Part shown: positions 31,295-53,172 of the stretch, piece by piece
Layout: each line of letters begins with the position of its first letter
Position numbering within the stretch: the stretch's first letter is position 1
NCBI GenBank assembly: GCA_965233585.1
Contig: CBDDTI010000747.1
Location: 640,001-704,000, forward strand
Origin: a bacterium
Lineage (GTDB): Bacteria > SAR324 > NAC60-12
Length of the DNA: 64,000 bases
Direction of reading: 5' to 3'
The notes under the pieces: model-generated
Told to the model about the DNA's origin: nothing
Database searches by the model: none
The model's input: only the letters and a program-made list of their open reading frames with translations
Program-made: the position numbers and the translations under genes

Positions 31295-31878
31295 AGTCCC
31301 CCCAAATCACGCAACAGGCTTTAATTCAGGAATTTTTTGAGGCAAATCCTCATCGTGATATATCGCATGCAGAGGCTGTGGATTGGCTTGTCGCAGAATA
31401 TAAAAAAAGAGCAAACAAGGTTTTTAGAGACCCAGATAGAGGAATCAGAAAACTTGCACAAATTGGTTTTCTCATCAAAGTTAAAAAGGGTGTTTATAGA
31501 TACGACCCTCATCTTACACATCAGAGAAGTTTAGAAGATTTTACAGAATCTCAAAAAGAACAAATTAAAAAGAGAGATGAATATAGATGCGTCATTTGTG
31601 GAGCAGGTGAAAAAGATGGAATAGAGTTACATGTTGATCATATCAAGCCCAAAGAATTAGGAGGCGAAGCAACAATAGAAAATGGGCAAGTTCTTTGTGC
31701 CAAGCATAACTTTCAAAAGAAAACATTCAAGCAGACTGAAACCGGTAAAAAGATGTTCATTCGTTTGTATGAATTGGCAAAAGTATCTGGAGATCATCAG
31801 TTGCTTCAATTCTGCAAAGATATTTTAGAATTATTTGAAAAACATGGCATCAATGGACATATCAAATGGGAAAAATAA
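31291..31878 (+). CDS. HNH endonuclease, likely cognate restriction enzyme
   Basis: RD.YRC.ICG..LHVDHIKP...GG.....NGQVLC.KHN. GTGA overlap with the MTase. Confidence 0.85.
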   Translation: MKSPQITQQALIQEFFEANPHRDISHAEAVDWLVAEYKKRANKVFRDPDRGIRKLAQIGFLIKVKKGVYRYDPHLTHQRSLEDFTESQKEQIKKRDEYRCVICGAGEKDGIELHVDHIKPKELGGEATIENGQVLCAKHNFQKKTFKQTETGKKMFIRLYELAKVSGDHQLLQFCKDILELFEKHGINGHIKWEK

Positions 31879-31928
31879 AAATGATTTTTGGCAATTTTTA
31901 AAAAACTACACCAATCAAACAACAGACA

Positions 31929-32681
31929 ATGACAACAGAAGCAGAAGGAATTAGGATTCAAAAAGTGCTGGCTCAGCAAGGGGTTGGCTCAAGGCGTGAG
32001 ATAGAAAAAATGATTGTTGAGCAACATATCATGGTCAATGGAGAACCTGCCAAACTGGGACAACGGGTGAGACCGGGACAAGATAGAATCTTGGTAGAGG
32101 GACAAGGTGTGAGAATTGACAAGCCTGTCAAACGAAAAGTGTATGCCTTTTATAAACCCAAAAATTGTGTGACCACTTTGCATGACCCTGAAGGACGATT
32201 GACTGTGAAAGCATTTTTTCCAAAGACCAAAGAACGTCTTTTTCCTGTCGGGAGGCTTGACTATGATGCAGAAGGATTGTTGCTGCTGACCAATGATGGT
32301 GCATTTGCTGACCGCATCATTCACCCAAGAAATAAGTTGTGGAAGACCTATTTTGTCAAACTGCAATCTGTCTTGAGTCAAGCAGACTTTCATAAAATCC
32401 GAATGGGAATGTATATTGGAAGAGATGAATACACACAGCCTACCAAAGTGAAGTTCTTGCATACCGTGAACGATAAAAGTTGGGTGGAACTCGCCATGAG
32501 GGAGGGGAAGAATCGCCAAATTAAACGAATGATGGAAAAACTTGGCACTCGCGTGCTTAAAATCAAAAGATTCAGCATCGGCAGCATCACACTTGGACCT
32601 TTACAAAAAGGCGAATCACGACTCTTAACACCCCAAGAATTGCAAGAGTTAGAAAAGCTCATTTCAAAGAAAAGCTCCTAA
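31929..32681 (+). CDS. rluB: rRNA pseudouridine synthase (RluB/RsuA family) with S4 domain
   Basis: RIQKVLA..G.GSRR, YKPK, PVGRLDYD.EGLLLLTNDG, EGKNRQIKRM. Confidence 0.9.
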   Translation: MTTEAEGIRIQKVLAQQGVGSRREIEKMIVEQHIMVNGEPAKLGQRVRPGQDRILVEGQGVRIDKPVKRKVYAFYKPKNCVTTLHDPEGRLTVKAFFPKTKERLFPVGRLDYDAEGLLLLTNDGAFADRIIHPRNKLWKTYFVKLQSVLSQADFHKIRMGMYIGRDEYTQPTKVKFLHTVNDKSWVELAMREGKNRQIKRMMEKLGTRVLKIKRFSIGSITLGPLQKGESRLLTPQELQELEKLISKKSS

Positions 32682-32733
32682 CAAGGCACTCCAGCCGACA
32701 GCTAAAGCTACCGCTGAGTTTTTAACGTTAACA
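32676..32733 (+). mobile_element. Integron attC recombination site (58 bp)
   Basis: R'' TCCTAAC, 5 nt, L'' ACTCCAGC, central AGCT-AA-AGCT hairpin, L' GCTGAGT, 7 nt, R' GTTAACA. L''/L' are complementary with one extrahelical base. Confidence 0.8.
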
Positions 32734-32736
32734 CTT

Positions 32737-33504
32737 ATGGGGAAACCAAACATGTCAGATAAAAGTTGGCAAAAAATATTTTTGGACTATCAAATTCTAC
32801 AGCATGATTTTAGTCAGTCGCCATTTATCCTAACTTCCGAAATGATAAAAACGTCCTGTCAAAATTTCACCAAAACGGGGGAGAAAGAAGTACGTATTTT
32901 GTGCAAGCAAGATCATAGAGAAAAAGTACCGACCATTATGGCTGAAAATGGTTTGTTTTTATTACCGGTCAAAAATGGCAAGTATGTGATTGTTAAAGGC
33001 GAAGGATATTTTGATATTCCAGAAATTACCACTAAGGCAAAATTCTATCAATCTAAAATATCCTTTGAATTGGAAACCTCACAAGTTGGCAATTCTGAAA
33101 TGCAACATTTGGATTTTGCCTATGCCACAAGCATCATTAGAACCTTTTTTAACGATGATAGTTTGGTTCTTACCATACGAGGCAGAAAATACACGCCAGA
33201 GTTTTCTTTCTATGTTGGCAATCAAAAAATCACCACAAAAAGCGTTCAAACAGAAGTTGACGCAGGCTATGAGGGTAAAGACAAAATTATCTTGGTAGAG
33301 GCAAAAAATTCAAAAACCCAAAACACTGTCATCAGGCAACTGTTTTACCCATTTAGACAGTGGAGTGAATATACTCAAAAACAAATATGCTTAGTATTCT
33401 TTGAAAAAAGGGACTCTGAGTATATGCTGTGGCAATACAAATTCAAAAACAAAGACGATTATAATAGCATTGAGTTAGTTAATAGTTGTAAATACTATCT
33501 ATGA
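32737..33504 (+). CDS. PD-(D/E)XK type II restriction endonuclease-like protein
   Basis: EVDAGYEG....LVEAK motif, AT-rich, ATGA-coupled to an MTase. Confidence 0.75.
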   Translation: MGKPNMSDKSWQKIFLDYQILQHDFSQSPFILTSEMIKTSCQNFTKTGEKEVRILCKQDHREKVPTIMAENGLFLLPVKNGKYVIVKGEGYFDIPEITTKAKFYQSKISFELETSQVGNSEMQHLDFAYATSIIRTFFNDDSLVLTIRGRKYTPEFSFYVGNQKITTKSVQTEVDAGYEGKDKIILVEAKNSKTQNTVIRQLFYPFRQWSEYTQKQICLVFFEKRDSEYMLWQYKFKNKDDYNSIELVNSCKYYL

Positions 33505-34310
33505 AAGATTACTTTTTTTATCAGTCTGAAAAATCAGTTCTGCTGTATGGAGACAGTTTGTTATTATTGGATAAATTAGCATCCAGTAATAGTCGTTTTG
33601 ATTTGATTTTTGCTGATCCGCCTTATTTTCTTTCTAATGGGGGTATGAGTGTACATGCTGGCAAGCGTGTAAAAGTAGATAAAGGAACTTGGGATAAATC
33701 CAATGGCTTTGATGCTGATTATGAATTTACTTATCAGTGGATTAGTAGATGTAGAGAATTATTAATTGACAATGGTACTATTTGGATTAGTGGTACATTG
33801 CACAATATTTACCTAGTAGGTTTTATACTGCAAAAATTGGGTTTTACTATTTTAAATGACATTGAATGGTTTAAGCCAAACGCCCCTCCTCATCTAGCAT
33901 GTCGTTACTTTGCCCATGCTCATGAAACGCTTTTATGGTCAAAAAAATCTAAAAAATCCAAGCATACTTTTCACTATGAGCAAATGAAAAAATGGCAAGG
34001 TGGCAAAGACATTATCAAAAATGAAAACAAGCAAATGCGCAGTGTGTGGGCAATACCACTTACACCAAAAAGTGAGAAAAAATTTGGCAAACATCCTACA
34101 CAAAAACCTGAAGAACTTTTAAGAAGAGTCATTCTATCTTCCAGTAATGCAGGTGATACTATCCTAGATCCTTTTTGTGGCAGTGGTACAACTGGAGTTG
34201 TATCTGTTCAGTATGGTAGGAATTTTATTGGTATAGATCATAACAGCGATTTCTTAGAGATTGCAAAGCAGAGAATAGAAGAAAAAAGCAATATATTGTC
34301 ATTGTTTTAG
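33501..34310 (+). CDS. Beta-class m6A DNA methyltransferase (DpnA-like)
   Basis: FADPPYFLSNGG..VDKG.WDK, HPTQKP, DPFCGSGTTG. Confidence 0.9.
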   Translation: MKDYFFYQSEKSVLLYGDSLLLLDKLASSNSRFDLIFADPPYFLSNGGMSVHAGKRVKVDKGTWDKSNGFDADYEFTYQWISRCRELLIDNGTIWISGTLHNIYLVGFILQKLGFTILNDIEWFKPNAPPHLACRYFAHAHETLLWSKKSKKSKHTFHYEQMKKWQGGKDIIKNENKQMRSVWAIPLTPKSEKKFGKHPTQKPEELLRRVILSSSNAGDTILDPFCGSGTTGVVSVQYGRNFIGIDHNSDFLEIAKQRIEEKSNILSLF

Positions 34311-35219: not shown

Positions 35220-36782
35220 ATGTCAAACAACCCTTTTGAATTTAAAATAGAACATCAACAAGTTTTCCTTCGGTTTCTCAAACCCTGCTCAGTTTCTAAA
35301 ATTCTTGAACCCCTGCAATATGAACTCTTCCAGTATGAGGTTGAGTATCTGCCAGACAGACTTTTGAAGCTGTCCCAAAATCAAAGTCAAACGTGGCAAT
35401 ATCTTTGCGAGTTTGGCAGCCGTCTTTATCAATACGAAGTCCGTCTTTCTCAAGGACACCATGAAGCCTATTTGACAATCGTCCCGCCCTTTCACGATGA
35501 CATTGAACCCCCAACTTTTGAGGAATTGCACCAAGTGTTAAAGCATCATGGGGTCTTGTCAGGCATTTTGGAATCAGAATGCCAAAAGATGCTACAAGAT
35601 GAAATTTTTTATGAACCTTGTCTTGTGGCAAAGTCTTCTCCTGCGGTGCAAGGGAACAATGGCAAACTTCAAATCATTTATCCTGCTGACAAACACTTCC
35701 ATCATTTACAGCAAATCAATTATCGTGAAAAAGGGACGTTGAGAACGGTTGTGCAAGGTGAATGGATTGCACGATTGATTCCCCCCACTACTGGGCAAGA
35801 TGGTTGGCTAGTCAATGGTCAAATTCTTTCTGCCAAAGCAGGCAAACCTTGTAGAGTGTATGCAGGAAAAGGGGTCACTTACAACCAAGACACTCATCAA
35901 TTTCATACAGAATCTGCAGGCTTTTTGCTTTTTGACAACAAACGATTGTCTGTGGAAAACATTTTGCGTGTGCCTTGTGTCAATCCAGAAATTGGCAATC
36001 TTAACTTTGATGGCAAGCTCTACATTGAAGGAGACGTGGAAGATGGCTATGAAGTCCGTGCCACTCAAGGCATTGAAGTCAAAGGAGTCGTTGGAAAGTC
36101 GTTGTTGGAAACCGATGGTTCTCTTTATATTCATGGGGGCGTCTGGGGTGCAACACTCCGTGCCAAGCAAATCATTTTTTTCCGTTTTGCATGTGATGCT
36201 AAAGTGCAACATGCCAGACACATCTACATTCAGCATTATGCCACGCACTGCGATTTGGAGGCTGAGGTGTCAGTCAAGGTGAAGGCACAAGATGGCTTCA
36301 TTTATGGTGGAAAAACAAGGGCAGGGCTTTTGATTTCTCTACCAAATGCAGGGTCTGAAAAGTGGGAAGTGACCAGCATCTTTCAAACAGGACTTTCTGC
36401 AAAAGAGGCTCAAACGTTGGCTTCTACTAAACAACAAGCTAAGCAACTTGAAGAATTTAAACGTCTGCGACACCAGTACATCAAACACCGTCAAAACATC
36501 AATCCCAAGCCCTTTCAAACGCTTTGTAACAACCTTCATGCACAAGCACGACTTCAACATCGTTTCAAGGAAACAGGGCATTCGTTCCAAGATGGAGTCA
36601 TTTTGGTCAATAATCACATCTTTCAAGGCAGTCAAATTCAAATAGGGCAGGCAGGCTATCTTGTCCAAACAGCACTCAAACATGTTGCTTTTATTGCACC
36701 CAAGTCCAAAGTCACCCCAACAGACATAGATGACCTAGACCTTCAAAAATTTCTCATTGCCAAATCACATCATGCAAATTGA
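35220..36782 (+). CDS. FapA / DUF342 family protein
   Basis: L...GV..GI, P.QG.NG, PPT.G.DG..V.G, GNL.FDG..I.GDVEDG.EV.A..GI.V.G, C-terminal I.QG.QIQIG. Confidence 0.8.
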   Translation: MSNNPFEFKIEHQQVFLRFLKPCSVSKILEPLQYELFQYEVEYLPDRLLKLSQNQSQTWQYLCEFGSRLYQYEVRLSQGHHEAYLTIVPPFHDDIEPPTFEELHQVLKHHGVLSGILESECQKMLQDEIFYEPCLVAKSSPAVQGNNGKLQIIYPADKHFHHLQQINYREKGTLRTVVQGEWIARLIPPTTGQDGWLVNGQILSAKAGKPCRVYAGKGVTYNQDTHQFHTESAGFLLFDNKRLSVENILRVPCVNPEIGNLNFDGKLYIEGDVEDGYEVRATQGIEVKGVVGKSLLETDGSLYIHGGVWGATLRAKQIIFFRFACDAKVQHARHIYIQHYATHCDLEAEVSVKVKAQDGFIYGGKTRAGLLISLPNAGSEKWEVTSIFQTGLSAKEAQTLASTKQQAKQLEEFKRLRHQYIKHRQNINPKPFQTLCNNLHAQARLQHRFKETGHSFQDGVILVNNHIFQGSQIQIGQAGYLVQTALKHVAFIAPKSKVTPTDIDDLDLQKFLIAKSHHAN

Positions 36783-41026: not shown

Positions 41027-41713
41027 ATGATGATTCCTGCAATTCAATTCGTCAAAAATTATCTTTCACTTCCTTTCAAAGGATTGCCCCAAGCATGTAG
41101 TTCGGCCTACTTAGAAATTTCTGAATTTCTTCTTGATGTCCCTCTTCATCTTATCAAAAGGCTGATACGGCTGACGCTTTTATTCCTTGTTGTTACTTTT
41201 TCTTGGATTCCAAACAGTTTTGGAGAACCCGCAGTTACTGGAATTGGATTAGGTACGACCTACGGTGGTACCTATGGAATTTTGGTGGCGGGTCCTTTGG
41301 GCAATTTAGAAGGACAGATTGTAGGTTTTGGTTTGGGACGGGTTGAATACCCAACAAAAGTTGAAGGAGAAGATAGCTCAGGTGAATTTGGATTAAGTGG
41401 GATGTGGGGTAAGTATTTTGAAGGACTTCCCAAATCTTACTATGGAGTTTCCGTGGGACCTGTTGCGTCTTATGCAGAAAATAAATGTACAAGATCTAGT
41501 AGCAGGTATAAGTGTAAGGGAAAGGGAGGTGTTTTATATGGTCTTAATTTAATCGTAGGAGGTTCCATCTGGGAGGATTTAAAAGGGTTTTACAGTGACC
41601 TTGGCGTTACAATCTGGTCTCAATCAGTTGAGTTTGAGATTTTTGGAAAGAAGTATAAGCGTGATGCTGTTGGTCGTTTAGTCTTTAGCATTGGATGGAA
41701 CTTAGAGAATTAA
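41027..41713 (+). CDS. Putative small outer-membrane beta-barrel protein
   Basis: Gly/aromatic-rich amphipathic strands, C-terminal FSIGWNL. Start uncertain. Confidence 0.55.
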   Translation: MMIPAIQFVKNYLSLPFKGLPQACSSAYLEISEFLLDVPLHLIKRLIRLTLLFLVVTFSWIPNSFGEPAVTGIGLGTTYGGTYGILVAGPLGNLEGQIVGFGLGRVEYPTKVEGEDSSGEFGLSGMWGKYFEGLPKSYYGVSVGPVASYAENKCTRSSSRYKCKGKGGVLYGLNLIVGGSIWEDLKGFYSDLGVTIWSQSVEFEIFGKKYKRDAVGRLVFSIGWNLEN

Positions 41714-41838: not shown

Positions 41839-42375
41839 ATGAAAATTTTAACATACATTAAAAATAACGCTGAGAGTTTAATGAACTCTTTTGGATTGTT
41901 TGGCTTCTTCCAAGGTTTTTTGAAAGGAACAAAAAAACTTGTTAGATCATTTTTGACCTTAGCTTTAGGAATGACCCTTATCTTTGTTCTAGCTGGGTGC
42001 GCTAAAGATGATGATGATTCTTCTGGTAGTGATGATGATGATCCTCATTTCAATGATCCTTATTTCAATAATCATTATGATGATGATAGTGATAGCCAAG
42101 TAACAATTTTAACCTTAAAAAATGAAACTAGTCAGCCCTTTGGTAAATTTTATATTTCTCCTAGCAGTTCTGATGATTGGGGAGACGATATGCTTCCAAA
42201 GACTTTGTGGCCAGGAGAGAAGTATAAATTTACTATTTCTGATTGTAATAAGGAATACGATTATAAATCAGTAGATTTTAAAGGTCGGGTGAGCATTATG
42301 AGAAGAGATTACGTGAAATGTGGTGAAGATTTTATTTTAAGAGTCCTTAGATTCAGAGACCGAGATGAATCTTAA
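41839..42375 (+). CDS. Lipoprotein with Asp-rich linker
   Basis: Lipobox LAGC, poly-D tract, N.T......YISPSS.DDWG.D.L...L.PGE...C.YD domain. Confidence 0.75.
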   Translation: MKILTYIKNNAESLMNSFGLFGFFQGFLKGTKKLVRSFLTLALGMTLIFVLAGCAKDDDDSSGSDDDDPHFNDPYFNNHYDDDSDSQVTILTLKNETSQPFGKFYISPSSSDDWGDDMLPKTLWPGEKYKFTISDCNKEYDYKSVDFKGRVSIMRRDYVKCGEDFILRVLRFRDRDES

Positions 42376-42568: not shown

Positions 42569-42930
42569 CTATCCCAATAGCCCTCTTTCAATTTCTAAAT
42601 CTCTTTTCTTTTTCTACTTTCCCATTTTTTTAAAATGGAGAAGTTCATCAAATGCCTTAATGACTAAAGGTTGATGATTCTATTCTGTTTGAAGACAGAT
42701 ATTAGCTTCATCTGTAAAGCCCTTTGTCCTTTCAAAAATTTTCTTTCTTTATTTTATTGATTGAATGCAGAATCTTCACAACGCAGGTGGTCTCTGAGCA
42801 GTTTTGACGTTCTTTGGCAATTTTTTAAAAAAGAGACTGCTTGAGTTAGGACTAGTTGATTCAGAAAGTGGTATGTTCTTTGCAAAAGGTATCGTGTCAG
42901 TCAGAACGATGTTAAAATAGGATTGAATCT

Positions 42931-44022
42931 ATGAAAAGGCAATTTTTAGTTATTGGTTTACTTGTTTGGTCAACGATTCTCTTTGCTCAGGAGCAAGAAG
43001 AGGTCATTCCTGACTCAGAGACAGAGAACTCTTCAGAAGAAGGTTGGAAGAGCAAGTGGAATGACCCCCGTATGAGACAACTTGAAGAGATTTCAGGAAA
43101 GCTGGAGACTTTAATGAACAAGCAAGTCAATGTGTCTTCTGCCGCAGTTTACGAGGTGCGTTTTTCCCCACAGATTGACAAGAATTTTAGGCAAGCGGCA
43201 TTGAGCAAGATGTATCAAGTCTTTAGCCGTGTTCCAGATTTTTATGCCGCACGTTGTGATGAATGCTTTCAAATCCGTACTAAAGTGTCAGGTAACACTT
43301 TGCGTGTAAGTCGTGGGATTGCAGACCCTGAACATCGGCGTAAAATTGCAAGACGTATGAACACAGAAGGATTTATGAAGATCATCATCTCCCAAGTAGA
43401 TCAACAACTTTCTGTTGCCATTGAAATTTACGGGGCAAAGAATGGACAGCTTCTTTTTAGTGAAGTGGTGGCAGGAACGCCTCCCATTCCTGAACCCAAT
43501 GCCTTTGATTTGTATGTAGGTCAAATGAGGTTTGACGTTGCCTTTGAGTCTGAGTCTGCAGATTTTTCCGAAACACAAACCTATCAGCTACCAACTTTGA
43601 CGTTTGGAAAGTCTTATCAAATTCTGGAACATTGGTATTTTACAGGAGACATTAGCATTTTGGCGGATATAAGTCAGAAAGAAGAAGATGCACCGGAGGT
43701 CACTGGGGGCTTTTCAGGACTTGCCTTTTATGGAAGAAGTATTTACGACTTTATCAATATTGGTGTCAATGACAATGTCAGTTTTGGACTCATTACAGGG
43801 ATTGGGCAATGGCTTTCTCCACAGCTCAAATTCCCTGTTTTGTATGCTGTGGGGTTGCGTATGATGATGGGCAGGACTTTCTTGTTTAACTTTGAATACA
43901 TTTCTACTGAAATTAAAGAGGTTCAAGCCACATACACCGACCCAGAAACAGAAGAAGAAGTGGAAGACATGAAAGCATCTGTCAATTCCGCAACCAGTGT
44001 CTCTTTAGGAATCCGTTTTTAG
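42931..44022 (+). CDS. Exported protein, alpha/beta N-domain (CxxC) plus beta-barrel-like C-domain; first gene of motor-like operon
   Basis: Signal peptide, CDEC, C-terminal amphipathic strands ending SLGIRF. Confidence 0.7.
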   Translation: MKRQFLVIGLLVWSTILFAQEQEEVIPDSETENSSEEGWKSKWNDPRMRQLEEISGKLETLMNKQVNVSSAAVYEVRFSPQIDKNFRQAALSKMYQVFSRVPDFYAARCDECFQIRTKVSGNTLRVSRGIADPEHRRKIARRMNTEGFMKIIISQVDQQLSVAIEIYGAKNGQLLFSEVVAGTPPIPEPNAFDLYVGQMRFDVAFESESADFSETQTYQLPTLTFGKSYQILEHWYFTGDISILADISQKEEDAPEVTGGFSGLAFYGRSIYDFINIGVNDNVSFGLITGIGQWLSPQLKFPVLYAVGLRMMMGRTFLFNFEYISTEIKEVQATYTDPETEEEVEDMKASVNSATSVSLGIRF

Positions 44023-44025
44023 GAA

Positions 44026-45636
44026 ATGATCATGAACTTACAAACTCAATTTTCAGTTGCTCTTTTGACTAGCCTTGCACTTGGGGCGTGTTCTTCAAAA
44101 AGTGATATTGAAGTAGAACAGAATCCAAATACTTCTCGTGTGATCTATACGCATACAAGAAAAAATGAAGTGGTTACAGTGACGGAAGAAAAAACCAAAG
44201 ATGAACATTTGATTCGTGTCAATATAGAACGTGATGGTGAGGTTTCAGAGGCAGTGCATCAAATCCAAGAGCATAATTTTGTCTTTGAAGTGCCACTGAG
44301 AGAAGCCCCTGCTGGAGTATTGGCAAGGAAAGTTGCAGACTATGAAGCCTACATTCAAAAAATCTTTTATGAAGAGATTGCCCAGCACATCTCCACTCAA
44401 CGTTTCACAACGACTGTCAGGGTGTCATGGGATGCGGGTCAGCTAGATACGTTGGATTCTAACTATGACGACCTCAAAACGGACACCTCACAAGTAGATG
44501 TCAGACTAGGCAGTGCCATTTCAAAACTTGATGTGTCAGTCTTGATAGATCAAGGGTTGCCCTCTCGCTATGATGAATTTGTCAAACAACTGATTTTGGC
44601 ACAATATTTTTTCCGTCCTACCAGAGGAGATGCTTTTGAAGTCAGACGTGCCGTGTTTCCTGCCCAAGACTTTTTAGGCAATGACTTTCAATCACGGCTT
44701 TTGACTTATGAATCAGAGGTTCGTCAAAGGTTTGACCAAACTTTAAATCAACACATTGACCCAGAAAATTTTGAAGTTTCATCAAGAATTTTTTGGAATC
44801 AACAAAAACTAGAAGACCTCAAGTTCCAATATCAAAAAGACTCTGGACAACGTCAATCTTCGCAAGATGTTCAATTTGTGACGGCTGTTGACAAACTGCA
44901 AGTAGCAGTCTTATTGGATAGGAATTTATCCAAAGAAAATGATGAATTTGTCAAGTCTCTTGTCTCTGCGCAAGCAGATTTTCAGCAGGACAGAGGAGAT
45001 GAGGTCAAGGTGCAACGAATCATCTTTCCTGCCAAAGGTTCTGTTGGTGTGACGCATAGTGAGAAGTTGGAGAAAACCTTGCGAGACCTCTTGACCAGCT
45101 ACATTGCACCTAAAAACTTTTTTGTTAAAGTTCAACTCTTACCCCCGAAAGAAGCAGACCAAGCAGGCAGGGCGCCTATCCATGTTGGAGTGGTTTTGAA
45201 TGACTTGCTTGACCCAAAAATTGATGACTTTGTCAGGCAAATCATTCCTTTTACTTTGAATACTGATGAAGAATACGGAGACGTCATAGAGGTGACTCGC
45301 AAACGATTCCCCGAAAATCCTGAAATCTCTCAACAAACCGCAGTTTCCAGCCCTAGCACCAATGACGTTGCTCAAACCCAAGAGGTTCAAGACATCTTTG
45401 AACAAATCAGGATTTATTATGAACAAATGGATTATGACAATGCTTTGGAATTGACTCAAAGGGCATTGATTATCGCATCTGACCGTGAGCAAAAAGTGAA
45501 ACTGCTCAAGATGAAGGGGTCTTTGCATTACTTGTTGCAAGAGCCTGAAAATGCACGCAGGGCGTGGAATGAAGTGTTACGGATTGAACCCAGCGATGAG
45601 GAAGCTAAACAATCTTTAAACATGATTGACTCATGA
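44026..45636 (+). CDS. Lipoprotein with three tandem FliF-C-like ring domains and C-terminal TPR
   Basis: Lipobox LGAC. Three repeats ending RGDAFEV..VFP / RGDEVKV..IFP / YGDVIEV..RFP. TPR ending A..AW..VL.IEP...EA. Confidence 0.7.
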   Translation: MIMNLQTQFSVALLTSLALGACSSKSDIEVEQNPNTSRVIYTHTRKNEVVTVTEEKTKDEHLIRVNIERDGEVSEAVHQIQEHNFVFEVPLREAPAGVLARKVADYEAYIQKIFYEEIAQHISTQRFTTTVRVSWDAGQLDTLDSNYDDLKTDTSQVDVRLGSAISKLDVSVLIDQGLPSRYDEFVKQLILAQYFFRPTRGDAFEVRRAVFPAQDFLGNDFQSRLLTYESEVRQRFDQTLNQHIDPENFEVSSRIFWNQQKLEDLKFQYQKDSGQRQSSQDVQFVTAVDKLQVAVLLDRNLSKENDEFVKSLVSAQADFQQDRGDEVKVQRIIFPAKGSVGVTHSEKLEKTLRDLLTSYIAPKNFFVKVQLLPPKEADQAGRAPIHVGVVLNDLLDPKIDDFVRQIIPFTLNTDEEYGDVIEVTRKRFPENPEISQQTAVSSPSTNDVAQTQEVQDIFEQIRIYYEQMDYDNALELTQRALIIASDREQKVKLLKMKGSLHYLLQEPENARRAWNEVLRIEPSDEEAKQSLNMIDS

Positions 45637-46703
45637 AATATCTGATTTTTATTATTCTTTTACTGACTGCACCAGTCATGCTTTTGGCTCAACAAGAAGT
45701 CAGAGACCAAGCTGATGACATCTTTCAGCAACTGATGGGACAAGATGCTCCATCAAGAGAAGAAGGAGAGGCTGAACCGACTCAAACGGCTGAAGCACCA
45801 CAGGTGGAAGCAGAAGCAGAGCCTGAAAACTCTCAACAACCTGCTAACTCTGAAAATGAAGTCACACAAGAGCAAGACTCTATCACGCCTTTGCAACTGC
45901 AAGAGATGTTGCGAGCATCTATCAAACAAGAAATCAAAATTCCTGATGAGGCTCAACGTCAGTTTAATGACAAACAGCTTAGTCAAAAAGTGAAAGAGTT
46001 CTTAAAACTTTCATTGTCTGAAAGACTCATAGATGTCGTGGTGGACACTCGTTACATTGTGCAGTTAGTTCCCATTGTGAAAAAAAGTAGTCAACTTCAA
46101 AAAATCAAATTGCCCGGTTTTGAAAACTACGTTTGGACTCCTGCATTTAAAAATCATAACTTATCGTTTTCTTATCAAACCAGACCTTACCGTACTTATT
46201 TTATTCTTCTCAATGGTCCAAAGACCCTTGTCAACTACGATTTGGTTCAAAAACGCATTGTTGAAATAGACCCTACTACCGATTGGGAAAATCGGGATTT
46301 GCTGAGAGTGATCAATGTTTCTTACGAGACACCTGAATCTTCCCCTTTGCAGATTGCTCAACAAAAACAGACTCAACAAGAAGAAATTCCCCAAATAGAA
46401 CCCAAAGAGGCAGTGCCAGCACCCCTTTCTTTGGAAGAACAGTTGGAACAGGAGAAGCAGTTTAGTAAACACTTGCTTTCTGCAAGAGATGAGTTTTTTA
46501 AGGACAATTTAGATGCGGCATTGGATAACCTGATTGAAGCCATCAAGTTTAATCCTAAATCTGCTCAAGCCTACGAGATGCTTGGCTCTGTTTACTATCG
46601 TTTGGATTGGAAGGAGAAGGCATTGCATTACTGGGGAAAGTCATTGGAACTTTACCCAGATAATAAGACTTTACAAAGATATTATGACAATTTGAGACAA
46701 TGA
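45633..46703 (+). CDS. Exported protein with degenerate FliF-like domain and C-terminal TPRs
   Basis: Signal peptide. LPGF and RDLLRV..VSY segments parallel the next gene. AYEMLGSVYYRL..A..YW..SLELYP.N TPR. Confidence 0.65.
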   Translation: MKYLIFIILLLTAPVMLLAQQEVRDQADDIFQQLMGQDAPSREEGEAEPTQTAEAPQVEAEAEPENSQQPANSENEVTQEQDSITPLQLQEMLRASIKQEIKIPDEAQRQFNDKQLSQKVKEFLKLSLSERLIDVVVDTRYIVQLVPIVKKSSQLQKIKLPGFENYVWTPAFKNHNLSFSYQTRPYRTYFILLNGPKTLVNYDLVQKRIVEIDPTTDWENRDLLRVINVSYETPESSPLQIAQQKQTQQEEIPQIEPKEAVPAPLSLEEQLEQEKQFSKHLLSARDEFFKDNLDAALDNLIEAIKFNPKSAQAYEMLGSVYYRLDWKEKALHYWGKSLELYPDNKTLQRYYDNLRQ

Positions 46704-48499
46704 AATGGTCAGCTATGAAACTGTGGCAACTTCTGCTTGCATTTTTGTTGGCATCGTCTGTTTTTGCACAAGAACGAGTGCCTTCTTTGCAACAGTATGA
46801 ATTAGGGCTTGAAAGTAAGATTCGCAGAAATTTAGAACACTACTTACAACCTAAAGACTATGTGTTGCGTGTGTCAGCACTAGGCAGTCCTTATGTTGCC
46901 CAAGAGATTTCTCCAACAACTCAAGTTGCTCAACCTGTTGAAAGTTTGCCCGGATTTTCTGCAGACCCTCCAGAAACACCAGTTGTTCAACAGATTCCTA
47001 AATCAAACACTCCAACACTTTGGGAGGTCTCCAGAGTTCAAATAGACCTTATCATGCACAAAGAGATTTCCTCTTCTTTGCAAGAATATCTGTTAAGGTC
47101 TGTTCCTTTGATTGCTGGATTGATTCCAGAGCGAGGCGATGCTTTTAATTTCCTACCAATCACCCCCAATGAAGTCATTAAACTTGAACCAGAAGAAGAA
47201 GCACCTGTTGAACCCTTAGAAAATTTGGAAGAAGAGCCACTTGTTGAACCTTTGACATGGTATGAACAACTTCATCAACAATATGGCATTTGGACTTGGG
47301 TTGCTTTGGGTGTAGTCGTATTCTTGTTTTTATTGCTTCTCATTTTATTGTTCAGACGTCCTAAAAAAATGGTTGAACAACCTGTGCAACAAGCAACACC
47401 TGATTTGAAACAACAGTTTGAACAAGAAAAACAAGAGGTTGAAAAGGAACGCACCAAAAAGATGCAAGACTTCTTTGCCCAAGAAGAACAAACCAAACTT
47501 GTTCAAGAGATTGTCAAAGAATTGATAGGACATGAAGATTGGAAAACAGAGCTTGTCCATGAATGGAGTAAAGGACGTAAAGACAAACTTCCTTTGCTGA
47601 TTTGTGCTTTGGGAACATTCACCTCAAGAAGTCTCTTTGCTAAGGTTCTGGGGTCATCTGTGTATGGAAAACTGGAACGAACCGCCAACGATTTGTCTCC
47701 TCAAGATTCAGAAATCGCTGACATTCTCAAAGAATCCTATGACTTCATCAAAGCCAAAAGTATTGACACCCCTCAAAAATATCAAAATGACCCGTTCCGT
47801 TTTTTAGATGAGTTAAGTCCTTCACAAGTCAGTTTTTTGGTGAAAGATGAACCCATCAGAATCAAAGCGATTGTGTTAAGCCGTCTGAACAGTGAGGGTG
47901 TCTCGCAGATTCTCAAAAAAATGCCTCCAGATGAACAATCGCAAGTTTTGATTACGATAGGCAATTTACATGAATTGCCCCTTGACCTGATTGAAGGGGT
48001 GGCAATGGAGTTAACCTCTAAATTGCCTGACTTGCCTGACGAAAACACAGCCTCTTTTGATGGGGTGGACATGTTGGCAGACCTCATCACTTTTGCTGAC
48101 AATCAAACAAGAAGGGACATTTTGAAACAGCTTAAACTCAATGACCAAAAGCTAAGTCTGAAAGTAGAAGAGCGAAGTTTTGTTTTTGAATCTATCCCTT
48201 TGATTCCCAAAGAAGTTTTAACAGAAGCGGTAAGACGCATGAACTCTGATGATGTTTTGACAGCATTTGTTGGGGCAGATCGTGAAATCCAGAAAGCAGT
48301 CATCTTGTGTTTTAATGAGACAGTGCGTGGCAATATGGTCTCTCAACTCAAAGCCAAGTCTCCAACTGCTGGTGAGATTGATGATAAGAAACGATTGTTT
48401 GTGGCACAAATCAGACAACTAGCAGACGAAGGAAAGATTGCCCTCAAAGACCTTTATCTGAACTGGCAAAAACGAAGCAGAAAAGCAAGAGTCGCCTGA
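46700..48499 (+). CDS. FliF-like periplasmic domain + TM helix + FliG middle/C-terminal domain fusion
   Basis: Signal, LPGF, ERGDAF, TM WVALGVVVFLFLLLLILLFRR, then DPFRFLDEL..Q...LVKDEP...AIVLSRL and SFVFESI..IRQLADEGKI.L matching the FliG-M/FliG-C pattern. Confidence 0.8.
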   Translation: MKWSAMKLWQLLLAFLLASSVFAQERVPSLQQYELGLESKIRRNLEHYLQPKDYVLRVSALGSPYVAQEISPTTQVAQPVESLPGFSADPPETPVVQQIPKSNTPTLWEVSRVQIDLIMHKEISSSLQEYLLRSVPLIAGLIPERGDAFNFLPITPNEVIKLEPEEEAPVEPLENLEEEPLVEPLTWYEQLHQQYGIWTWVALGVVVFLFLLLLILLFRRPKKMVEQPVQQATPDLKQQFEQEKQEVEKERTKKMQDFFAQEEQTKLVQEIVKELIGHEDWKTELVHEWSKGRKDKLPLLICALGTFTSRSLFAKVLGSSVYGKLERTANDLSPQDSEIADILKESYDFIKAKSIDTPQKYQNDPFRFLDELSPSQVSFLVKDEPIRIKAIVLSRLNSEGVSQILKKMPPDEQSQVLITIGNLHELPLDLIEGVAMELTSKLPDLPDENTASFDGVDMLADLITFADNQTRRDILKQLKLNDQKLSLKVEERSFVFESIPLIPKEVLTEAVRRMNSDDVLTAFVGADREIQKAVILCFNETVRGNMVSQLKAKSPTAGEIDDKKRLFVAQIRQLADEGKIALKDLYLNWQKRSRKARVA

Positions 48500-49470
48500 T
48501 GCTAGAAAGAATCATCACCTTCTTTGGAATTATCATAGGAATTGGATTAATTGGCTTTGGGATTGTTTGGCCTGATAAATATTCTAATGCCTATCTTTAC
48601 AACATTGCACTGATGGAAGCAGACATCAAAGCGATGCAAGAGGCACGGACTCCTTTTGCACAAGTGCAGGCTAAAAGGAGGGAATTGGAAACCTACCGCG
48701 AATCTATTCCTGCCAATGTGGCTCGCTTTCTTGATTTGAAATCTTTTGTCATTGTGTTTGGTGGGTCTTTTGCCGCCTTGCTCATTGCTTTCCCTGCCAG
48801 AAAATCACTGCGGGCATTTTTGTTCATCTCCTCTGCTTTTTTTGGCAAAGACAAGCAAGGGTCAGAATTTGCAGAATACTACAGCACCTTTGTCAAATTT
48901 TCTGAAAAACTCTCTGCACGGGAACTCATCACCGACGAAGACTTTGCATCAATTGAAGACAAAAGACTTCGGGAATGGTTAGAGTACTTCACTGCATCAG
49001 ATTCTGTGCCTGAGGAGATGATTCAAGAAATTATTCGCTCTGAAATTGCCGCCGTAGAACGTACATCAGAAGAAGAGGCAGAACTCCTTGACTTTATGTC
49101 TAAGGTTGCACCTGCATTTGGCATGATTGGAACGGTCATTGGTTTGATTTTGATGCTCGGCAATGTGAATGCAGATGACATTGATATTTTTAAAATCATT
49201 GGTGCAATGGGAGTCGCTATGATTACAACACTTTATGGGGTGGCAGTAGCAAATCTTATCTTCACTCCGATTGCTACCAAACGAAGAAGCCTGATGTATT
49301 CAGAATTGTATCTGATGGAAATGGCAAGAGAGGGAATCCTTTATCTCAAAAACAAACAAACTCCAGAACTTGTCTCAAGAGACCTTATTATTTATTTGCC
49401 AGATAGGATTAGACAACGAATTGAGCAAGAGAAGTTAGAAAAACTCAAATCAGGTGATTTAGGTCTATGA
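48499..49470 (+). CDS. motA: MotA/PomA-like stator A subunit
   Basis: S.VIVFGGS.AALLIAFP, APAFGMIGTVIGLI.ML, MGVAMITTLYG..ANL.F.PIA.K, EGIL. Confidence 0.88.
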   Translation: MLERIITFFGIIIGIGLIGFGIVWPDKYSNAYLYNIALMEADIKAMQEARTPFAQVQAKRRELETYRESIPANVARFLDLKSFVIVFGGSFAALLIAFPARKSLRAFLFISSAFFGKDKQGSEFAEYYSTFVKFSEKLSARELITDEDFASIEDKRLREWLEYFTASDSVPEEMIQEIIRSEIAAVERTSEEEAELLDFMSKVAPAFGMIGTVIGLILMLGNVNADDIDIFKIIGAMGVAMITTLYGVAVANLIFTPIATKRRSLMYSELYLMEMAREGILYLKNKQTPELVSRDLIIYLPDRIRQRIEQEKLEKLKSGDLGL

Positions 49471-50102
49471 GAAAGAATGTAGGAGAATCAACATGGATGG
49501 TCACTTATGCAGACATGGTCACCTTGCTGTTTATCTTCTTCATCTTGTTGACTGCCATCTCTGCACGTCCCAAAAACTGTAAAAATATCAGTGATTACAT
49601 GGCATCTAATCCACAGAATTTTGCCAACTACGAGCTTCGTGCTACCAAATTACAATGTATCATTTCTCTCCCTCAGGATTTTTTGTTTTCTTCAGGCGAG
49701 GCAAAGCTGAAAGAAGGGGCATTGCGTGAGTTATCCCCTTTTTTTCAAATGATCAAAAACCTTCCTGAACACCAAGAAGATTTAGTCGTGGTAGAAGGAC
49801 ACACTGACAATGTACCAATCCGCACCAAAGAGTTCCCAAGCAACTGGGAGTTAAGTTCGGCTCGTTCTCTTTCTGTGGCAAGGTTTCTGGTGGACCGTCT
49901 TGGATATGCCCAAGAGACAGTGTCAGTCAAAGCCTTTGCAGACACCCGCCCCAAAGTCCCCTATCAAGACCCCTACAATCGCCCACTCCAAGGAAATGAG
50001 CTTAAAAATGCAAGAAAAGCGAACAGACGCATTGAAGTCCTCATCATAGACCAACCCCGCTCCAGAGAAGATGCCAGCATCCTCTTTCAAACTGTCCAAT
50101 AA
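49467..50102 (+). CDS. motB: MotB/PomB-like stator B subunit with OmpA domain
   Basis: WMVTYADMVTLL..FFILL, LFSSG.A.L, VEGHTDNVP, NWELSSARS, NRRIE. Confidence 0.9.
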   Translation: MRKNVGESTWMVTYADMVTLLFIFFILLTAISARPKNCKNISDYMASNPQNFANYELRATKLQCIISLPQDFLFSSGEAKLKEGALRELSPFFQMIKNLPEHQEDLVVVEGHTDNVPIRTKEFPSNWELSSARSLSVARFLVDRLGYAQETVSVKAFADTRPKVPYQDPYNRPLQGNELKNARKANRRIEVLIIDQPRSREDASILFQTVQ

Positions 50103-50148: not shown

Positions 50149-52050
50149 CTATGGAAGGATTGGTAAGGATTCTGCCAAAGTAGATTTGAAAAAAATGACT
50201 TGCGGTGCAAACAACAGTGTTTGTTCTTGTTGCAAATAGGAGTCACTTTGAAAACTTGCAGAATTGAGAGAGTGCAGTTGTTTTAGATGAAAGAGTGCAT
50301 CATCATTTCGTTGTGTTTGGGCATAGATGAGGCTTAATCGTTGTAAAAAGATGTCATGTTGCAAAGTGGATTGTCGTCTTTGAAGGAAAGAGACAAGCAG
50401 TTGTTCTGCTTCTTGAAGCATTCCCATCTTGACGTAAAGCAGGCTTAAATCGTCAATCAAAGAGACTTGTTCAGGGAACAACTGATACCCTTGCTCGTAA
50501 ATCTTTTGTGCTTCTTTGTCTTGTTTAAGATATTGCAACGCCCGACCTGCTTGTAAATGCAACAAACCTGCTCCTTTTTTTGCGTTGAGAAAGGGCTGCA
50601 AATAAGTCAAAGTGTTGTCATAGCGTCCCATTTGATTGAGAATGCTGGCGTGAAGATAAGCAATGTCTTCACTGGATTGTTTTGACAAATTTTGGGTCAT
50701 AGCAAAGGCTTGCTGATAACGTTTTTGAAAGTAAAGCAGTCTTGCCAAAGTAAATCTGACTTTGGGAGTGTCTTGAAGTTCTTGCAGTTGCAAGGTCAAT
50801 TTTTCTGCAAGTTCATACTGACCACGCAAGATGTAAAGGTCTATTTGCAAATGCAATAATTGTGGGTCAAGTGAAGATTCTGCTTGCATTTCATTGAGTG
50901 CATTTTCCACACGGTTCCAGTTTTGGGTTTGCATGTCTCTTTGAATTTTAAGCATCTGATAACGTTGGTTGCTAAAATCCAACTCCAATGCTCTAGCAAG
51001 CTCATTGTCTCCTTGTAAAGTGTTGCCTTCCTTGAACAAAACCAGTGCCAGTAAATATCTTGCTTCTGCCTGCATTTCATCTATTTCCACAGAACGTCTC
51101 AACCAGATTTTTGCCTCTTCAAATTGGTCTTGATACAGAAAGACTGATGCCAATAACACCATGCTTTTTGCATCAAGTGGAACGTCTTCTAAAAGATTTT
51201 GCAAAGTTTGTTGTGCAAGAAGCCACTTCTTTTGTTTGATGGCAATGCGGGCAAGAATTTGTCTTTCTAAGACACTATAAGGTTCTTGGGTTTGTGCAAG
51301 AATCGCTTTGTCGTTTCCTTGTAAAAAGAGAATTTTCAGTAAATATTCCTTCGCTTTGGCAAGGGTTGGTTCGTCTGCCAATAATTGTTGAACTAAGACT
51401 TTGGCATGGTAATAATTCCCTTGTAGCATCTGAATTTGCACCTCTAAAAGCCGATATTCTGGATTGCTTGGTTCAAAGAGTAGGACATTTTTCAAATGAT
51501 TTTCTGCCACTTCAAAGTCACGTTGTTTGATGTTGAGTCTTGTCAGATAGGCTTGAATTTCTAAGGTAGGTCCTGAACGTTGCAATGCCACTTCCAATGC
51601 GCCAATAGCACGTTCGTTGTCTCCAATCCTCTCATAAGTCATTGCCAGTTTGAGGTAGGCAGAGATGAGGTCACGGTCTAACTTAATGGCTGTGTTCAGG
51701 GAGTCAATAGCACGGCTATACTTCTTATTTTGATACGCAATGCTTCCTAATAGCTCAAAGTAAATTCCAACGATGGGAGAAAGGCTTAACGCTCTTTGAA
51801 TGTTCAGTTCCGCTTGTTCTAAATTTTGTTGTTCAAAATAAGCCAACGCTAGCTGATAGTATGCAACGGCGTCATTCTTGTTATTCTGAATGCGGGTTTG
51901 TTGTTCAGTAATAAACTGTTCTTTCTGTAATGCGTCCATTCTCTCAAACTGTTCAAGCGTCGTTGGAGAGGTGCAAGCAAGGCTTAAGAAGCACAAAAGA
52001 CTAAGGACGTGTGATGGTATAGGTTTGAGAAGGCGAGCTTTCATTGCCAT
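50149..52050 (-). CDS. TPR-repeat lipoprotein
   Basis: Lipobox SLAC, many TPRs (AYYQLALAYFEQ, AYLKLAMTYERIG). Start uncertain. Confidence 0.8.
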   Translation of the reverse strand: MAMKARLLKPIPSHVLSLLCFLSLACTSPTTLEQFERMDALQKEQFITEQQTRIQNNKNDAVAYYQLALAYFEQQNLEQAELNIQRALSLSPIVGIYFELLGSIAYQNKKYSRAIDSLNTAIKLDRDLISAYLKLAMTYERIGDNERAIGALEVALQRSGPTLEIQAYLTRLNIKQRDFEVAENHLKNVLLFEPSNPEYRLLEVQIQMLQGNYYHAKVLVQQLLADEPTLAKAKEYLLKILFLQGNDKAILAQTQEPYSVLERQILARIAIKQKKWLLAQQTLQNLLEDVPLDAKSMVLLASVFLYQDQFEEAKIWLRRSVEIDEMQAEARYLLALVLFKEGNTLQGDNELARALELDFSNQRYQMLKIQRDMQTQNWNRVENALNEMQAESSLDPQLLHLQIDLYILRGQYELAEKLTLQLQELQDTPKVRFTLARLLYFQKRYQQAFAMTQNLSKQSSEDIAYLHASILNQMGRYDNTLTYLQPFLNAKKGAGLLHLQAGRALQYLKQDKEAQKIYEQGYQLFPEQVSLIDDLSLLYVKMGMLQEAEQLLVSFLQRRQSTLQHDIFLQRLSLIYAQTQRNDDALFHLKQLHSLNSASFQSDSYLQQEQTLLFAPQVIFFKSTLAESLPILP

Positions 52051-52738
52051 AAGAATCTACTAATCTGAATTGATAAAGTGCTGTTTGCATGATTTCTTGG
52101 TCTAGGAAAAATTCGTCAGAAATCGGTTGATTGTGAATGGGTTGTCGTGTCCACTTGTCAGAGGGGGCTTTGCGATAAATATTCATCTGATAATAAACAT
52201 TTTCTGGCTGGTCTGTGCCTAGTTTGAAAAGCATTTTTTCTAATGGAGCTTGCCATCTCATCAGCACAGCAGATGAGGAGTTTAGGACAAGTTTGACTTC
52301 AGGTAAGCTAGGAAATTCGCTAAAATGTTGCAAACGTGTCAGGACTGTGGCAAACGTCCTTGTTTTATTGATGTCTTGGTGTTTGAGTTCAAATAGATAA
52401 CTTGAAAGAGTCTTGGGAAGGTCAAGCATTAAGAACGCACGGGATTCTTCTATGATGAGATGATGGCTTGGTAATGGCACTTGTACACTTGAAATGAGGG
52501 TGGCATCGCATTTGATGCAGTATCTGGCAAATTCAAAAGTTTTGATGACAATGAAACCTTGTGTTGGGACGTCTTGTGAAAAATTCCAAGTTAATAGAAT
52601 TTTCTCCCCTTGCTGACGGGCTTGAAATTGTTCAATGGAGCTAGATTTTTCAGGAGGTGAAGGGGCTGTTTTATAACCGCATGCTAACAGAGTCAGTTGC
52701 ACGAAGCAAAGCCAAATGGCGATGTCTTGCCGTTTCAT
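52001..52738 (-). CDS. Lipoprotein, fibronectin-III-like
   Basis: Start MKRQDI at 52738, lipobox LLAC-GYK.AP.PP, C-terminal Y..R.VD.YGNES.PS. Confidence 0.7.
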   Translation of the reverse strand: MKRQDIAIWLCFVQLTLLACGYKTAPSPPEKSSSIEQFQARQQGEKILLTWNFSQDVPTQGFIVIKTFEFARYCIKCDATLISSVQVPLPSHHLIIEESRAFLMLDLPKTLSSYLFELKHQDINKTRTFATVLTRLQHFSEFPSLPEVKLVLNSSSAVLMRWQAPLEKMLFKLGTDQPENVYYQMNIYRKAPSDKWTRQPIHNQPISDEFFLDQEIMQTALYQFRLVDSYGNESSPSQTYTITRP

Positions 52739-53172
52739 CTGCTTATTTGTTGTTGGAAATTTCTCAAAATCCTCTGTATCTGCTTTAAATCTGTTTGTGT
52801 ATAGTGGCTTTGCAAGATGTCTATTTTTTGGTTCATAAAGCACCATTGCTTTTGTGCAGGCTCATTTATCATGGGAATTTGTAAACAATGAAGTTGCTGA
52901 GAGGCTGTGTTCCAATAAAAAGCGTAATCAGCATCTTGTTCTATTTGTAACCTTAAATTGCCCCCCCATTGTTCCAACTGATAGATTCCCTTATCAACCA
53001 AATGTCCTGCACCATACGAAACTGACCAATCTGCATTGGCAATTTTAAACTCATAACAGCCTGCGTTAAATTTGACAGAACAAAATAAAATCTTGGGTCT
53101 CACAGTTTGGAAACAAAATGGTTGTTGCGCTTGCCAGTTTTGTAAAGAACTCCTAAAAAACCATTCTTGCAT
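52735..53172 (-). CDS. Small protein resembling a pullulanase/amylase-associated carbohydrate-binding domain
   Basis: G.YEFKIANADW..SYG, GGNL...Y.F.W pattern. Confidence 0.5.
   Translation of the reverse strand: MQEWFFRSSLQNWQAQQPFCFQTVRPKILFCSVKFNAGCYEFKIANADWSVSYGAGHLVDKGIYQLEQWGGNLRLQIEQDADYAFYWNTASQQLHCLQIPMINEPAQKQWCFMNQKIDILQSHYTQTDLKQIQRILRNFQQQISR

Follow-up and report, generated by a model that had tools for sequence, protein, structure and literature searches.

The subject of this analysis is a 64,000-nt stretch of the genome of a SAR324 bacterium (hereafter, the window; GenBank assembly GCA_965233585.1, contig CBDDTI010000747.1, positions 640,001 to 704,000 of the forward strand) and, within it, a cassette of six genes (positions 42931-50102, + strand) whose products, denoted p1 to p6 in gene order, combine parts of the flagellar motor with predicted envelope proteins. 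We lean, with modest confidence, toward the view that this cassette encodes a flagellum-independent, MotAB-driven machine, likely rotary, that spans the cell envelope. This view is based on the domains that the proteins contain, on the joint inheritance of p4 and a distinct MotA, on an altered stator-rotor interface, on the presence of a separate flagellar gene set in the same genome, and on homologous cassettes in genomes without a flagellum; we infer that the machine assembles into a ring and rotates.

To our knowledge, a FliG rotor with a MotAB drive has been described only in the core of the flagellum. A full-text literature search, which did not extend to the supplements of the cited papers, yielded no published description of a natural non-flagellar FliG-MotAB cassette, and a survey of MotAB relatives, in part of its text, makes no mention of a FliG-linked non-flagellar set (PMC12505986). 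It has been suggested, in a passage of another paper, that rotor proteins of non-motile species might serve another function (PMC12199754). The cassette looks like an apparently undescribed ion-driven envelope machine made from flagellar motor parts. If this is the case, it would add to the ion-driven rotary machines that bacteria are known to possess, with a conserved FliG-MotAB module wired to outer-membrane proteins, and would provide a handle on the origin or re-use of the flagellar torque generator, on the separation of two stator-rotor pairs within one cell, and on the envelope process of abundant ocean bacteria that needs mechanical power.

The p4 protein consists of a periplasmic domain, in which LPGF and RGD motifs are invariant, a transmembrane (TM) helix (residues 200-218), a cytoplasmic linker (about residues 222-355) and the middle (M) and C-terminal (C) domains of FliG (about residues 356-582). 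The FliG domains were recognized by Pfam (FliG_M, E = 4.2e-11; FliG_C, E = 3.9e-12) and in a search of the Protein Data Bank (PDB), where p4 matched FliG (1lkv, E = 4.7e-21) and, among other entries, an engineered FliF-FliG fusion (8z4d). Comparison with the canonical FliG of the same genome (hhalign, 95.7%) produced an alignment across the M and C domains only; a Pfam match to FliG_N (E = 2.4e-5) coincides with the M domain, and no separate FliG_N was detected. Among 5.8 billion proteins, the relatives of p4 form a small family of 47 clusters, the same 47 with either a single sequence or an alignment as the query, and the names of their sources are SAR324, Lambdaproteobacteria or 'Proteobacteria'.

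The connection of the cassette to FliF, the protein of the flagellar MS-ring, comes through the lipoprotein p2 (lipobox LGAC), which contains three repeats (about residues 100-215, 222-338 and 340-432) followed by a C-terminal tetratricopeptide repeat (TPR) region (Pfam TPR_1/TPR_2). Only repeat 2 matches the Pfam family YscJ_FliF_C (PF08345; E = 2.1e-8, 35.2 bits versus the cut-off of 23.8, residues 276-334); among 11 other p2-like proteins, one scores above the cut-off for this family and two more have E < 0.01, and a PDB profile search with p2 gave matches dominated by TPR. The periplasmic domain of p4 is similar to a p2 repeat (hhalign, 97.2%, E = 3.9e-11) and is related, in turn, to p3, where a signal peptide is followed by a middle domain that carries an invariant KLPGF motif and by a C-terminal TPR region (Pfam TPR_11/TPR_2): the profile of the p4 periplasmic domain matches p3 with 88% and E = 3.1e-6, compared to 38.9% for p3 and the whole of p4. 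Pfam detected no FliF-type match in p3 or p4, a search of the ESM Atlas with the p3 domain returned no usable match, and a genome-wide search for the N-terminal YscJ_FliF region (PF01514) matched the canonical FliF only and none of the cassette proteins.

The sequence-only reading of this DNA had described p2 as a lipoprotein with three FliF-like domains and TPR, p3 as an exported FliF-like protein with TPR, and p4 as a fusion of FliF-like, TM and FliG parts. The overall architecture stands in all three cases, that is, the lipobox, three repeats and TPR of p2, the signal peptide and TPR of p3, and the TM helix, FliG_M and FliG_C of p4. The FliF part of the description has to be narrowed: judging by profile matches, the assignment would be direct for p2 only, through repeat 2, and transitive for p3, via the p4 domain, and for p4, via the p2 repeat. 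The p2 repeats have a history of their own. Repeats 1 and 2 are 38% identical (E = 5e-24; E = 7e-6 for repeats 2 and 3), and six p2 orthologs from the same family possess two repeats versus three in the window copy; hence, on this comparison, repeats 1 and 2 (window positions 44323-45039) are a recent, lineage-specific tandem domain duplication in the window copy.

The claim that p1 is an exported, barrel-like protein was borne out by structure prediction. No Pfam or NCBIfam model matched p1, which carries a signal peptide and a terminal Phe; a search of 1.84 billion representatives gave 158 relatives (E <= 1e-3). The AlphaFold2 (AF2) model, built on 38 relatives, has a predicted local distance difference test score (pLDDT) of 89 and a predicted template modeling score (pTM) of 0.71. 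The model comprises an alpha/beta domain (residues ~46-181) followed by eight long strands (residues 190-362). The eight-stranded barrel matches the N-terminal domain of OprF (Z = 14.9), NspA (Z = 14.6) and OmpA (Z = 14.5), and residues 49-184 match LpoB (Z = 10.2; all VIA); Foldseek likewise retrieved OmpA/NspA/Ail/OmpW and LpoB. The N-terminal domain, LpoB/TolB-N-like and predicted to be periplasmic, contains a CxxC motif (C109/C112, window positions 43255-43266) that is invariant in 13 of 13 sequences, and in p6 a Cys within a PK(N/D)C motif directly follows the MotB TM helix in all 10 orthologs. These conserved periplasmic cysteines may represent a redox or disulfide feature of the assembly.

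As initially proposed, p5 is a MotA and p6 a MotB. The p5 protein, with four TM helices, matches MotA_ExbB in Pfam (E = 5.4e-23) and MotA in PDB (6ysf, E = 1.2e-28); its best NCBIfam model is MotP (E = 1.7e-41, 142 bits, below the cut-off of 394), with far lower similarity to other A-subunit models (TolQ, E = 2e-4; ExbB, E = 1.7e-3). Pfam identified in p6 the MotB_plug domain (E = 6.9e-13) and an OmpA domain of the peptidoglycan-binding type (E = 1.1e-13), and the NCBIfam match is to MotD (E = 5.5e-33, 114.7 bits, below the cut-off of 283); the NCBIfam equivalog cut-offs for MotA/PomA/MotP and MotB/MotS/MotD were not reached by p5 and p6. The channel Asp in the TM helix of p6 (D16) is invariant in 10 of 10 orthologs, and the plug region carries the conserved PKNC motif (PK(N/D)C in 10/10). 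Two features set the cassette MotA apart, namely, a periplasmic insertion of ~50 residues between TM1 and TM2 and a C-terminal GDLGL tail that is found in 10/10 cassette MotAs versus 0/12 other MotAs.

The residues at the predicted contact between stator and rotor differ from those of the flagellar pair. In Escherichia coli, the charges of the torque helix are R281, D288 and D289 of FliG and the MotA partners are R90 and E98, as given in part of the survey cited above (PMC12505986). Canonical FliG has an Arg and two acidic residues at the site that corresponds to the torque helix of p4, where all 15 family members contain no acidic residues and conserve R543 and K/R551, the p4 Arg being displaced by 1-2 positions. 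On the stator side, the position of the canonical Arg in the cassette MotAs is occupied by S, V, N, Y or F, never by Arg; the Glu position retains E in 7/10 (D, Q or A in the others), and the Asp that precedes it is invariant (10/10). As read from these alignments, the cassette interface is charge-complementary yet unlike the canonical pair of the same genome. Such an altered interface would insulate the cassette motor from the flagellar motor.

The genome indeed contains a separate canonical flagellar gene set. Canonical FliG (a 343-aa frame) and FlhA are encoded on contig C746, canonical FliF is encoded at C747:256005, ~430 kb from the cassette, and genes for two FliM, for the rod and for two additional MotAs are found elsewhere in the genome. 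Therefore, the cassette, which is single-copy in this genome (tblastn), does not encode the only rotor and stator of the flagellum. The absence of export, rod, hook, filament and FliM genes from the operon and the window, noted at the outset, is upheld for open reading frames (ORFs) of at least 200 aa: no matches to these flagellar families were found among the 31 other window ORFs in this size range and one neighboring ORF of 178 aa, with smaller genes, such as fliQ, outside the scan.

The distribution of the cassette was examined in 88 genomes that are assigned to SAR324 by their source names; these genomes are related, and the counts below are not independent. The p4 gene is present in 44 of the 88 genomes and a full-length cassette-type MotA in 42. 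The two coincide in 39 of the 44 p4 carriers, with a contig-end fragment in one more; the four carriers without this MotA are 59-89% complete, and the three (of 44) non-carriers that encode it are 51-72% complete. In genera g33 and g37, p4 and the cassette MotA are either both present or both absent in each species. Among 14 loci from relatives, p1 to p4 are always found together, and motAB adjoins them in nine, is unlinked in four and would lie past the contig end in one; where motAB is not adjacent, a full-length cassette-type MotA is encoded elsewhere in four of the five genomes examined. The gene order is p1-p2-p3-p4-motAB in one family and motAB-p1-TPR lipoprotein-p2-p3-p4 in another. Thus, the cassette is co-inherited across four families despite changes in gene order and is conserved as a unit, with the order rearranged and the gene set kept. 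The genes flanking the 14 loci vary, and none of the 30 flanking ORFs that were scanned is flagellar.

Related cassettes were identified also outside SAR324, in a phylum denoted here the second phylum, a label that derives from the single record titled Bacteroidales bacterium (locus L026, genome G088). The p4 profile matches 74 of 401 genomes of the second phylum, 29 of them with long frames (590-706 aa), and 18 of these 29 long-frame carriers lack FlhA (completeness is unestimated for most of these genomes). All seven loci that were fetched contain p4-like, full-length p1-like, TPR, MotA and MotB genes. The profile match of the p4-like proteins extends across the periplasmic domain, the TM helix and FliG, and the periplasmic LPG and RGD motifs are common to p4 of the two phyla. 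Five of the seven loci belong to closed, single-contig genomes of 3.4-3.9 Mb, in none of which were FliP (0/5) or flagellin (0/5) found. Given homologous cassettes in genomes that lack FlhA, FliP and flagellin, the wider family would appear to function without a flagellum. By gene content, the SAR324 cassette is an enlarged, SAR324-specific member of this wider five-gene family, with which it shares homologous p4 and p1, a TPR protein, MotA and MotB. Compared to the five-gene cassette, the SAR324 form adds two proteins that combine a ring-building motif (RBM)-like domain with TPR, p2 and p3; its MotA has the periplasmic insertion and the GDLGL tail; the torque helix of its p4 is basic-only; and it always occurs alongside flagellar genes (44/44). 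On the points that the sequence-only reading had singled out, the FliG and FliF-type matches hold, the cassette is conserved, and separate canonical flagellar genes are present; the survey of gene neighborhoods that it proposed shows p1 to p4 together at 14/14 loci, with canonical flagellar genes in the SAR324 carriers and no FlhA in 18 of 29 carriers from the second phylum.

A putative promoter accompanies the cassette. The element TGGTATGTTCTTTGCA is the sole strict match to the sigma-54-type pattern TGGYAY-N5-TTGCW in the window, and in 12 of 13 orthologous loci a TGG-N9-TGCW element is situated close to whichever cassette gene comes first, be it p1 or motA. The six genes are probably a single operon, predicted to depend on sigma-54. 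In the 12 Mb of the genome, the strict pattern was found at 63 sites, 16 of which are copies of one repeat. This repeat is a separate case: it consists of the exact 16-mer TGGTATTGTCATTGCA with a 62-aa ORF 16 bp downstream, is present in 16 copies on the four largest contigs (for example, at C747:621, C747:177277, C745:222430 and C746:298808), and accounts for a quarter of the strict sigma-54-like matches genome-wide.

If the proteins function as their domains suggest, p4 would oligomerize through its RBM-like periplasmic domain to form an inner-membrane ring, with FliG M and C facing the cytoplasm. Units of the MotA5B2 type, consisting of p5 and p6, would be fixed to the peptidoglycan by the OmpA-like domain of p6; ions would pass the invariant Asp of p6, and the acidic cytoplasmic patch of MotA would push the basic torque helix of p4, turning the ring. 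The p3 protein and the lipoprotein p2, with their ring-type domains and TPR, could form periplasmic rings or a stator scaffold above the p4 ring, and p1 would tie the assembly to the outer membrane. The likeliest outputs of such a machine would be the transmission of force or rotation to a process at the outer membrane or cell surface, such as surface movement, transport or envelope maintenance. A more elaborate version of this scheme, which we put forward tentatively and deem somewhat less than an even bet, is that the cassette represents a new class of rotary machine, in which a MotAB-spun p4 ring is connected by stacked periplasmic rings to an outer-membrane barrel, without axial secretion or a filament, and which in SAR324 exists beside the flagellum, insulated from it by the re-charged interface. 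Should that be the case, the family would represent either the recruitment of the flagellar torque core to a function at the outer membrane or cell surface, or an extant model of a rotor that preceded the flagellum.

Several observations weigh against an independent machine. All 44 SAR324 carriers of the cassette look flagellated: FlhA is encoded in 42, and the two FlhA-negative carriers encode canonical FliG (G069) or FliP (G058), with no cassette in the other nine FlhA-negative SAR324 genomes (0/9). Two of the few other unique strict sigma-54-like sites lie just upstream of flagellar rod genes or operons. Remote relatives of the N-terminal domain of p1 match FlgO, LpoB and CsgG, albeit with no FlgO match to p1 itself in the Pfam scan. 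TPR proteins commonly serve as stator scaffolds in elaborate flagellar motors. The periplasmic domain of p4 showed no detectable similarity to FliF in Pfam or in the PDB profile search (best E = 0.54). Finally, in a MotA tree of 22 rows with long branches, the cassette stators of SAR324 and those of the second phylum did not group together, so that descent of the entire cassette from one ancestor is not supported by this tree. Judged from SAR324 alone, a link to the flagellum would be possible because all carriers look flagellated, and the shared sigma-54-type promoter class fits putative co-regulation with flagellar genes. Accordingly, the initial description of the cassette as self-contained agrees with the flagellum-free genomes of the second phylum that carry a homologous cassette, and fares less well in SAR324, with its 44 seemingly flagellated carriers and the promoter class common to the cassette and the two rod operons.

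One alternative explanation is a flagellar accessory, that is, an extra periplasmic or outer-membrane scaffold with added stators that surrounds the canonical motor and may include a second, outer rotor ring; it might be likened to the H- and T-rings of Vibrio or the PflA/PflB/FlgP disks of Campylobacter. Flagellar genes in all carriers, the promoter class, the LpoB/CsgG/FlgO fold class of the p1 N-terminal domain, and the TPR and lipoprotein parts that are typical of motor scaffolds would all be accounted for. We nevertheless consider this explanation unlikely. Homologous cassettes reside in closed genomes without FlhA, FliP and flagellin; 35 of the 77 FlhA-positive SAR324 genomes, congeners of carriers included, lack the cassette, which implies that the flagellum does not need it; no flagellar neighbor was found among the 30 flanking ORFs scanned from the 14 loci; and the cassette supplies both FliG and MotAB itself, with a non-canonical interface between them. 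We know of no motor scaffold that has its own FliG and MotAB.

Alternatively, the cassette might encode a non-rotary transducer, in which MotAB pulls or twists a single p4 and the force is transmitted via p3, p2 and p1 to an outer-membrane process, in the manner of ExbBD-TonB or TolQR-TolA-Pal. According to part of a review of 5:2 motors, all other non-flagellar ones act on a periplasm-spanning partner rather than on a large rotor ring (PMC9389320); furthermore, no solved ring protein was matched directly by the periplasmic domain of p4, and p1 and p2 are predicted to be anchored in the outer membrane, as are Pal or the partners of TonB. What makes a transducer quite unlikely, in our assessment, is that the stator is of the MotA/PomA rather than the ExbB/TolQ type (MotP, E = 1.7e-41, versus TolQ, E = 2e-4), that its partner is FliG M and C, a ring element in flagella, that the periplasmic domains appear to be akin to the end of FliF that forms the ring, and that no TonB- or TolA-like protein was found by Pfam among the cassette proteins. 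Since it is made of parts with a flagellar ancestry and has lost the canonical charges of the torque helix, the cassette could conceivably be a functionless, decaying leftover of a duplicated flagellar gene set. This is very improbable considering the six intact frames with translational coupling, the residues that are invariant across ~30% identity, and a gene set that is co-inherited in four families and survived changes in gene order.

Comparison with known systems brings out what an envelope machine of this kind would share with them and where it would differ. With the flagellar motor core (the FliF MS-ring, FliG and MotA5B2/PomA5B2), the cassette shares FliG M and C, a four-TM MotA, a MotB with plug, channel Asp and OmpA-like domain, and a periplasmic domain, linked transitively to the end of FliF, that directly precedes the TM helix in p4 as it does in FliF. 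Unlike that core, the cassette includes no export gate, rod, hook, filament, FliM or FliN, contains no YscJ_FliF region and no detected FliG_N, has changed charges in the torque helix and MotA, and encodes the additional proteins p1, p2 and p3. Engineered FliF-FliG fusions of Vibrio and Salmonella, according to part of the respective report, form rings (PMC10941966) and resemble p4 in that a single chain joins a FliF-type membrane part to FliG; these are laboratory constructs with full-length FliF that operate inside a flagellum, whereas p4 is natural and has one short periplasmic domain, one TM helix and a cleavable signal peptide.

The 5:2 motors named in the relevant part of the review mentioned above are MotAB, ExbBD, TolQR, AglRQS and GldLM (PMC9389320). 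The ExbBD-TonB, TolQR-TolA-Pal, AglRQS-Glt and GldLM-type IX secretion (T9SS) systems appear similar to the cassette in that an ion-driven inner-membrane unit powers a non-flagellar, envelope-spanning apparatus that ends at outer-membrane proteins or lipoproteins. These systems employ units of the ExbB, TolQ or GldL type and no FliG, in contrast to the flagellar-type stator of the cassette with its FliG partner, and Pfam detected no TonB, TolA or GldM families in the cassette proteins. Elaborate flagellar motors possess scaffolds such as FlgO/FlgP/FlgT with MotX/MotY in Vibrio and PflA/PflB/FlgP in Campylobacter. The cassette shares with these scaffolds TPR proteins, lipoproteins and a domain of the LpoB/FlgO class, which in the cassette adjoin stator genes; the scaffolds differ in that they are not known to have FliG or MotAB of their own and depend on the flagellum.

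The coordinates of the cassette genes and the promoter-like element are listed in the table. The six co-oriented ORFs and their junctions proved to be as described in the sequence-only reading: p1 and p2 are separated by 3 bp, and the following genes overlap by ATGA, ATGA, TGATG and ATGA. This packing is the predicted layout of one translationally coupled operon.

Table. Features of the six-gene cassette and its upstream region in the window
Feature	Position	Strand	Basis
Sigma-54-type promoter-like element TGGTATGTTCTTTGCA	42869-42884	+	62 bp 5' of p1 start; consensus match
p1, predicted exported outer-membrane protein, 363 aa	42931-44022	+	AF2 model, Foldseek
p2, lipoprotein, FliF C-terminal-type (RBM-like) repeats and TPR, 536 aa	44026-45636	+	Pfam, repeat comparison, lipobox
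p3, exported protein, domain related to p4 periplasmic domain and C-terminal TPR, 356 aa	45633-46703	+	Pfam, hhalign
p4, signal peptide/RBM-like domain/TM/linker/FliG M and C, 599 aa	46700-48499	+	Pfam, PDB search, hhalign
p5, MotA/PomA-type stator A subunit, 323 aa	48499-49470	+	Pfam, NCBIfam, PDB search
p6, MotB-type stator B subunit, 211 aa	49467-50102	+	Pfam, NCBIfam

The genes that flank the cassette in the window (a TPR gene at 50149-52050 and ORFs at 52001-52846, 41839-42375 and 41027-41713) have no homologs beside the cassettes in 22 loci and, therefore, are not part of the cassette unit. No Rfam families were found in the window, and a simple scan for sigma-70 promoters and terminators gave no excess over shuffled sequences.

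Some relatives carry additional genes at the cassette locus. In G007, two large CarboxypepD_reg proteins are encoded after motB on the same strand, the first overlapping the end of motB (L012, 3954-6320 and 1715-3793, both - strand), and in a variant locus of G008 a 1410-aa CarboxypepD_reg protein is encoded upstream (L033, 2903-7132, + strand). These proteins are candidates for surface or outer-membrane cargo and are not conserved at other loci. A divergent second module was identified in the same phylum, at L033 (G008:C11:86000-104000) and also at L032 (G011:C11). Its five ORFs in L033 (7151-8173, 8201-10345, 10384-12621, 12674-13630 and 13661-15007) encode a homolog of p1 (hhalign, 100%, E = 3e-41), a protein of 715 aa that matches no family, a FliG-like membrane protein of 746 aa (98.8%), a MotA and a MotB that is long, at 449 aa; a phage-sheath-like gene adjoins the module. 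The FliG-like frames of ~580 aa that are found beside MotA paralogs in G011, G023, G014 and G004 may be of the same type.

The assembly consists of 747 contigs. The four contigs longer than 200 kb total 2.78 Mb, with the coverage by ORFs of at least 100 aa being 0.89-0.92 in the three measured; the 743 small contigs total 9.2 Mb, with a similar GC content of ~0.40 and an ORF coverage of 0.21-0.80 in the 12 sampled. This 12-Mb assembly may be a composite bin or may be rich in non-coding or foreign DNA.

Elsewhere in the window, a FapA-family protein (FapA, E = 4e-41; FapA_N, E = 7e-30) is encoded at 35220-36782 (+ strand), which is 6 kb from the cassette on its upstream side, and the start of the window (667-1479, + strand) encodes a protein with a PilZ domain; the FapA and PilZ families have frequent ties to flagellar control. 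Another group of genes, at 30497-34310 (+ strand), consists of two N6/N4 DNA methylase genes on either side of a pseudouridine synthase gene and a DUF6996/DUF6997 gene, and may be a restriction-modification-like or defense islet.

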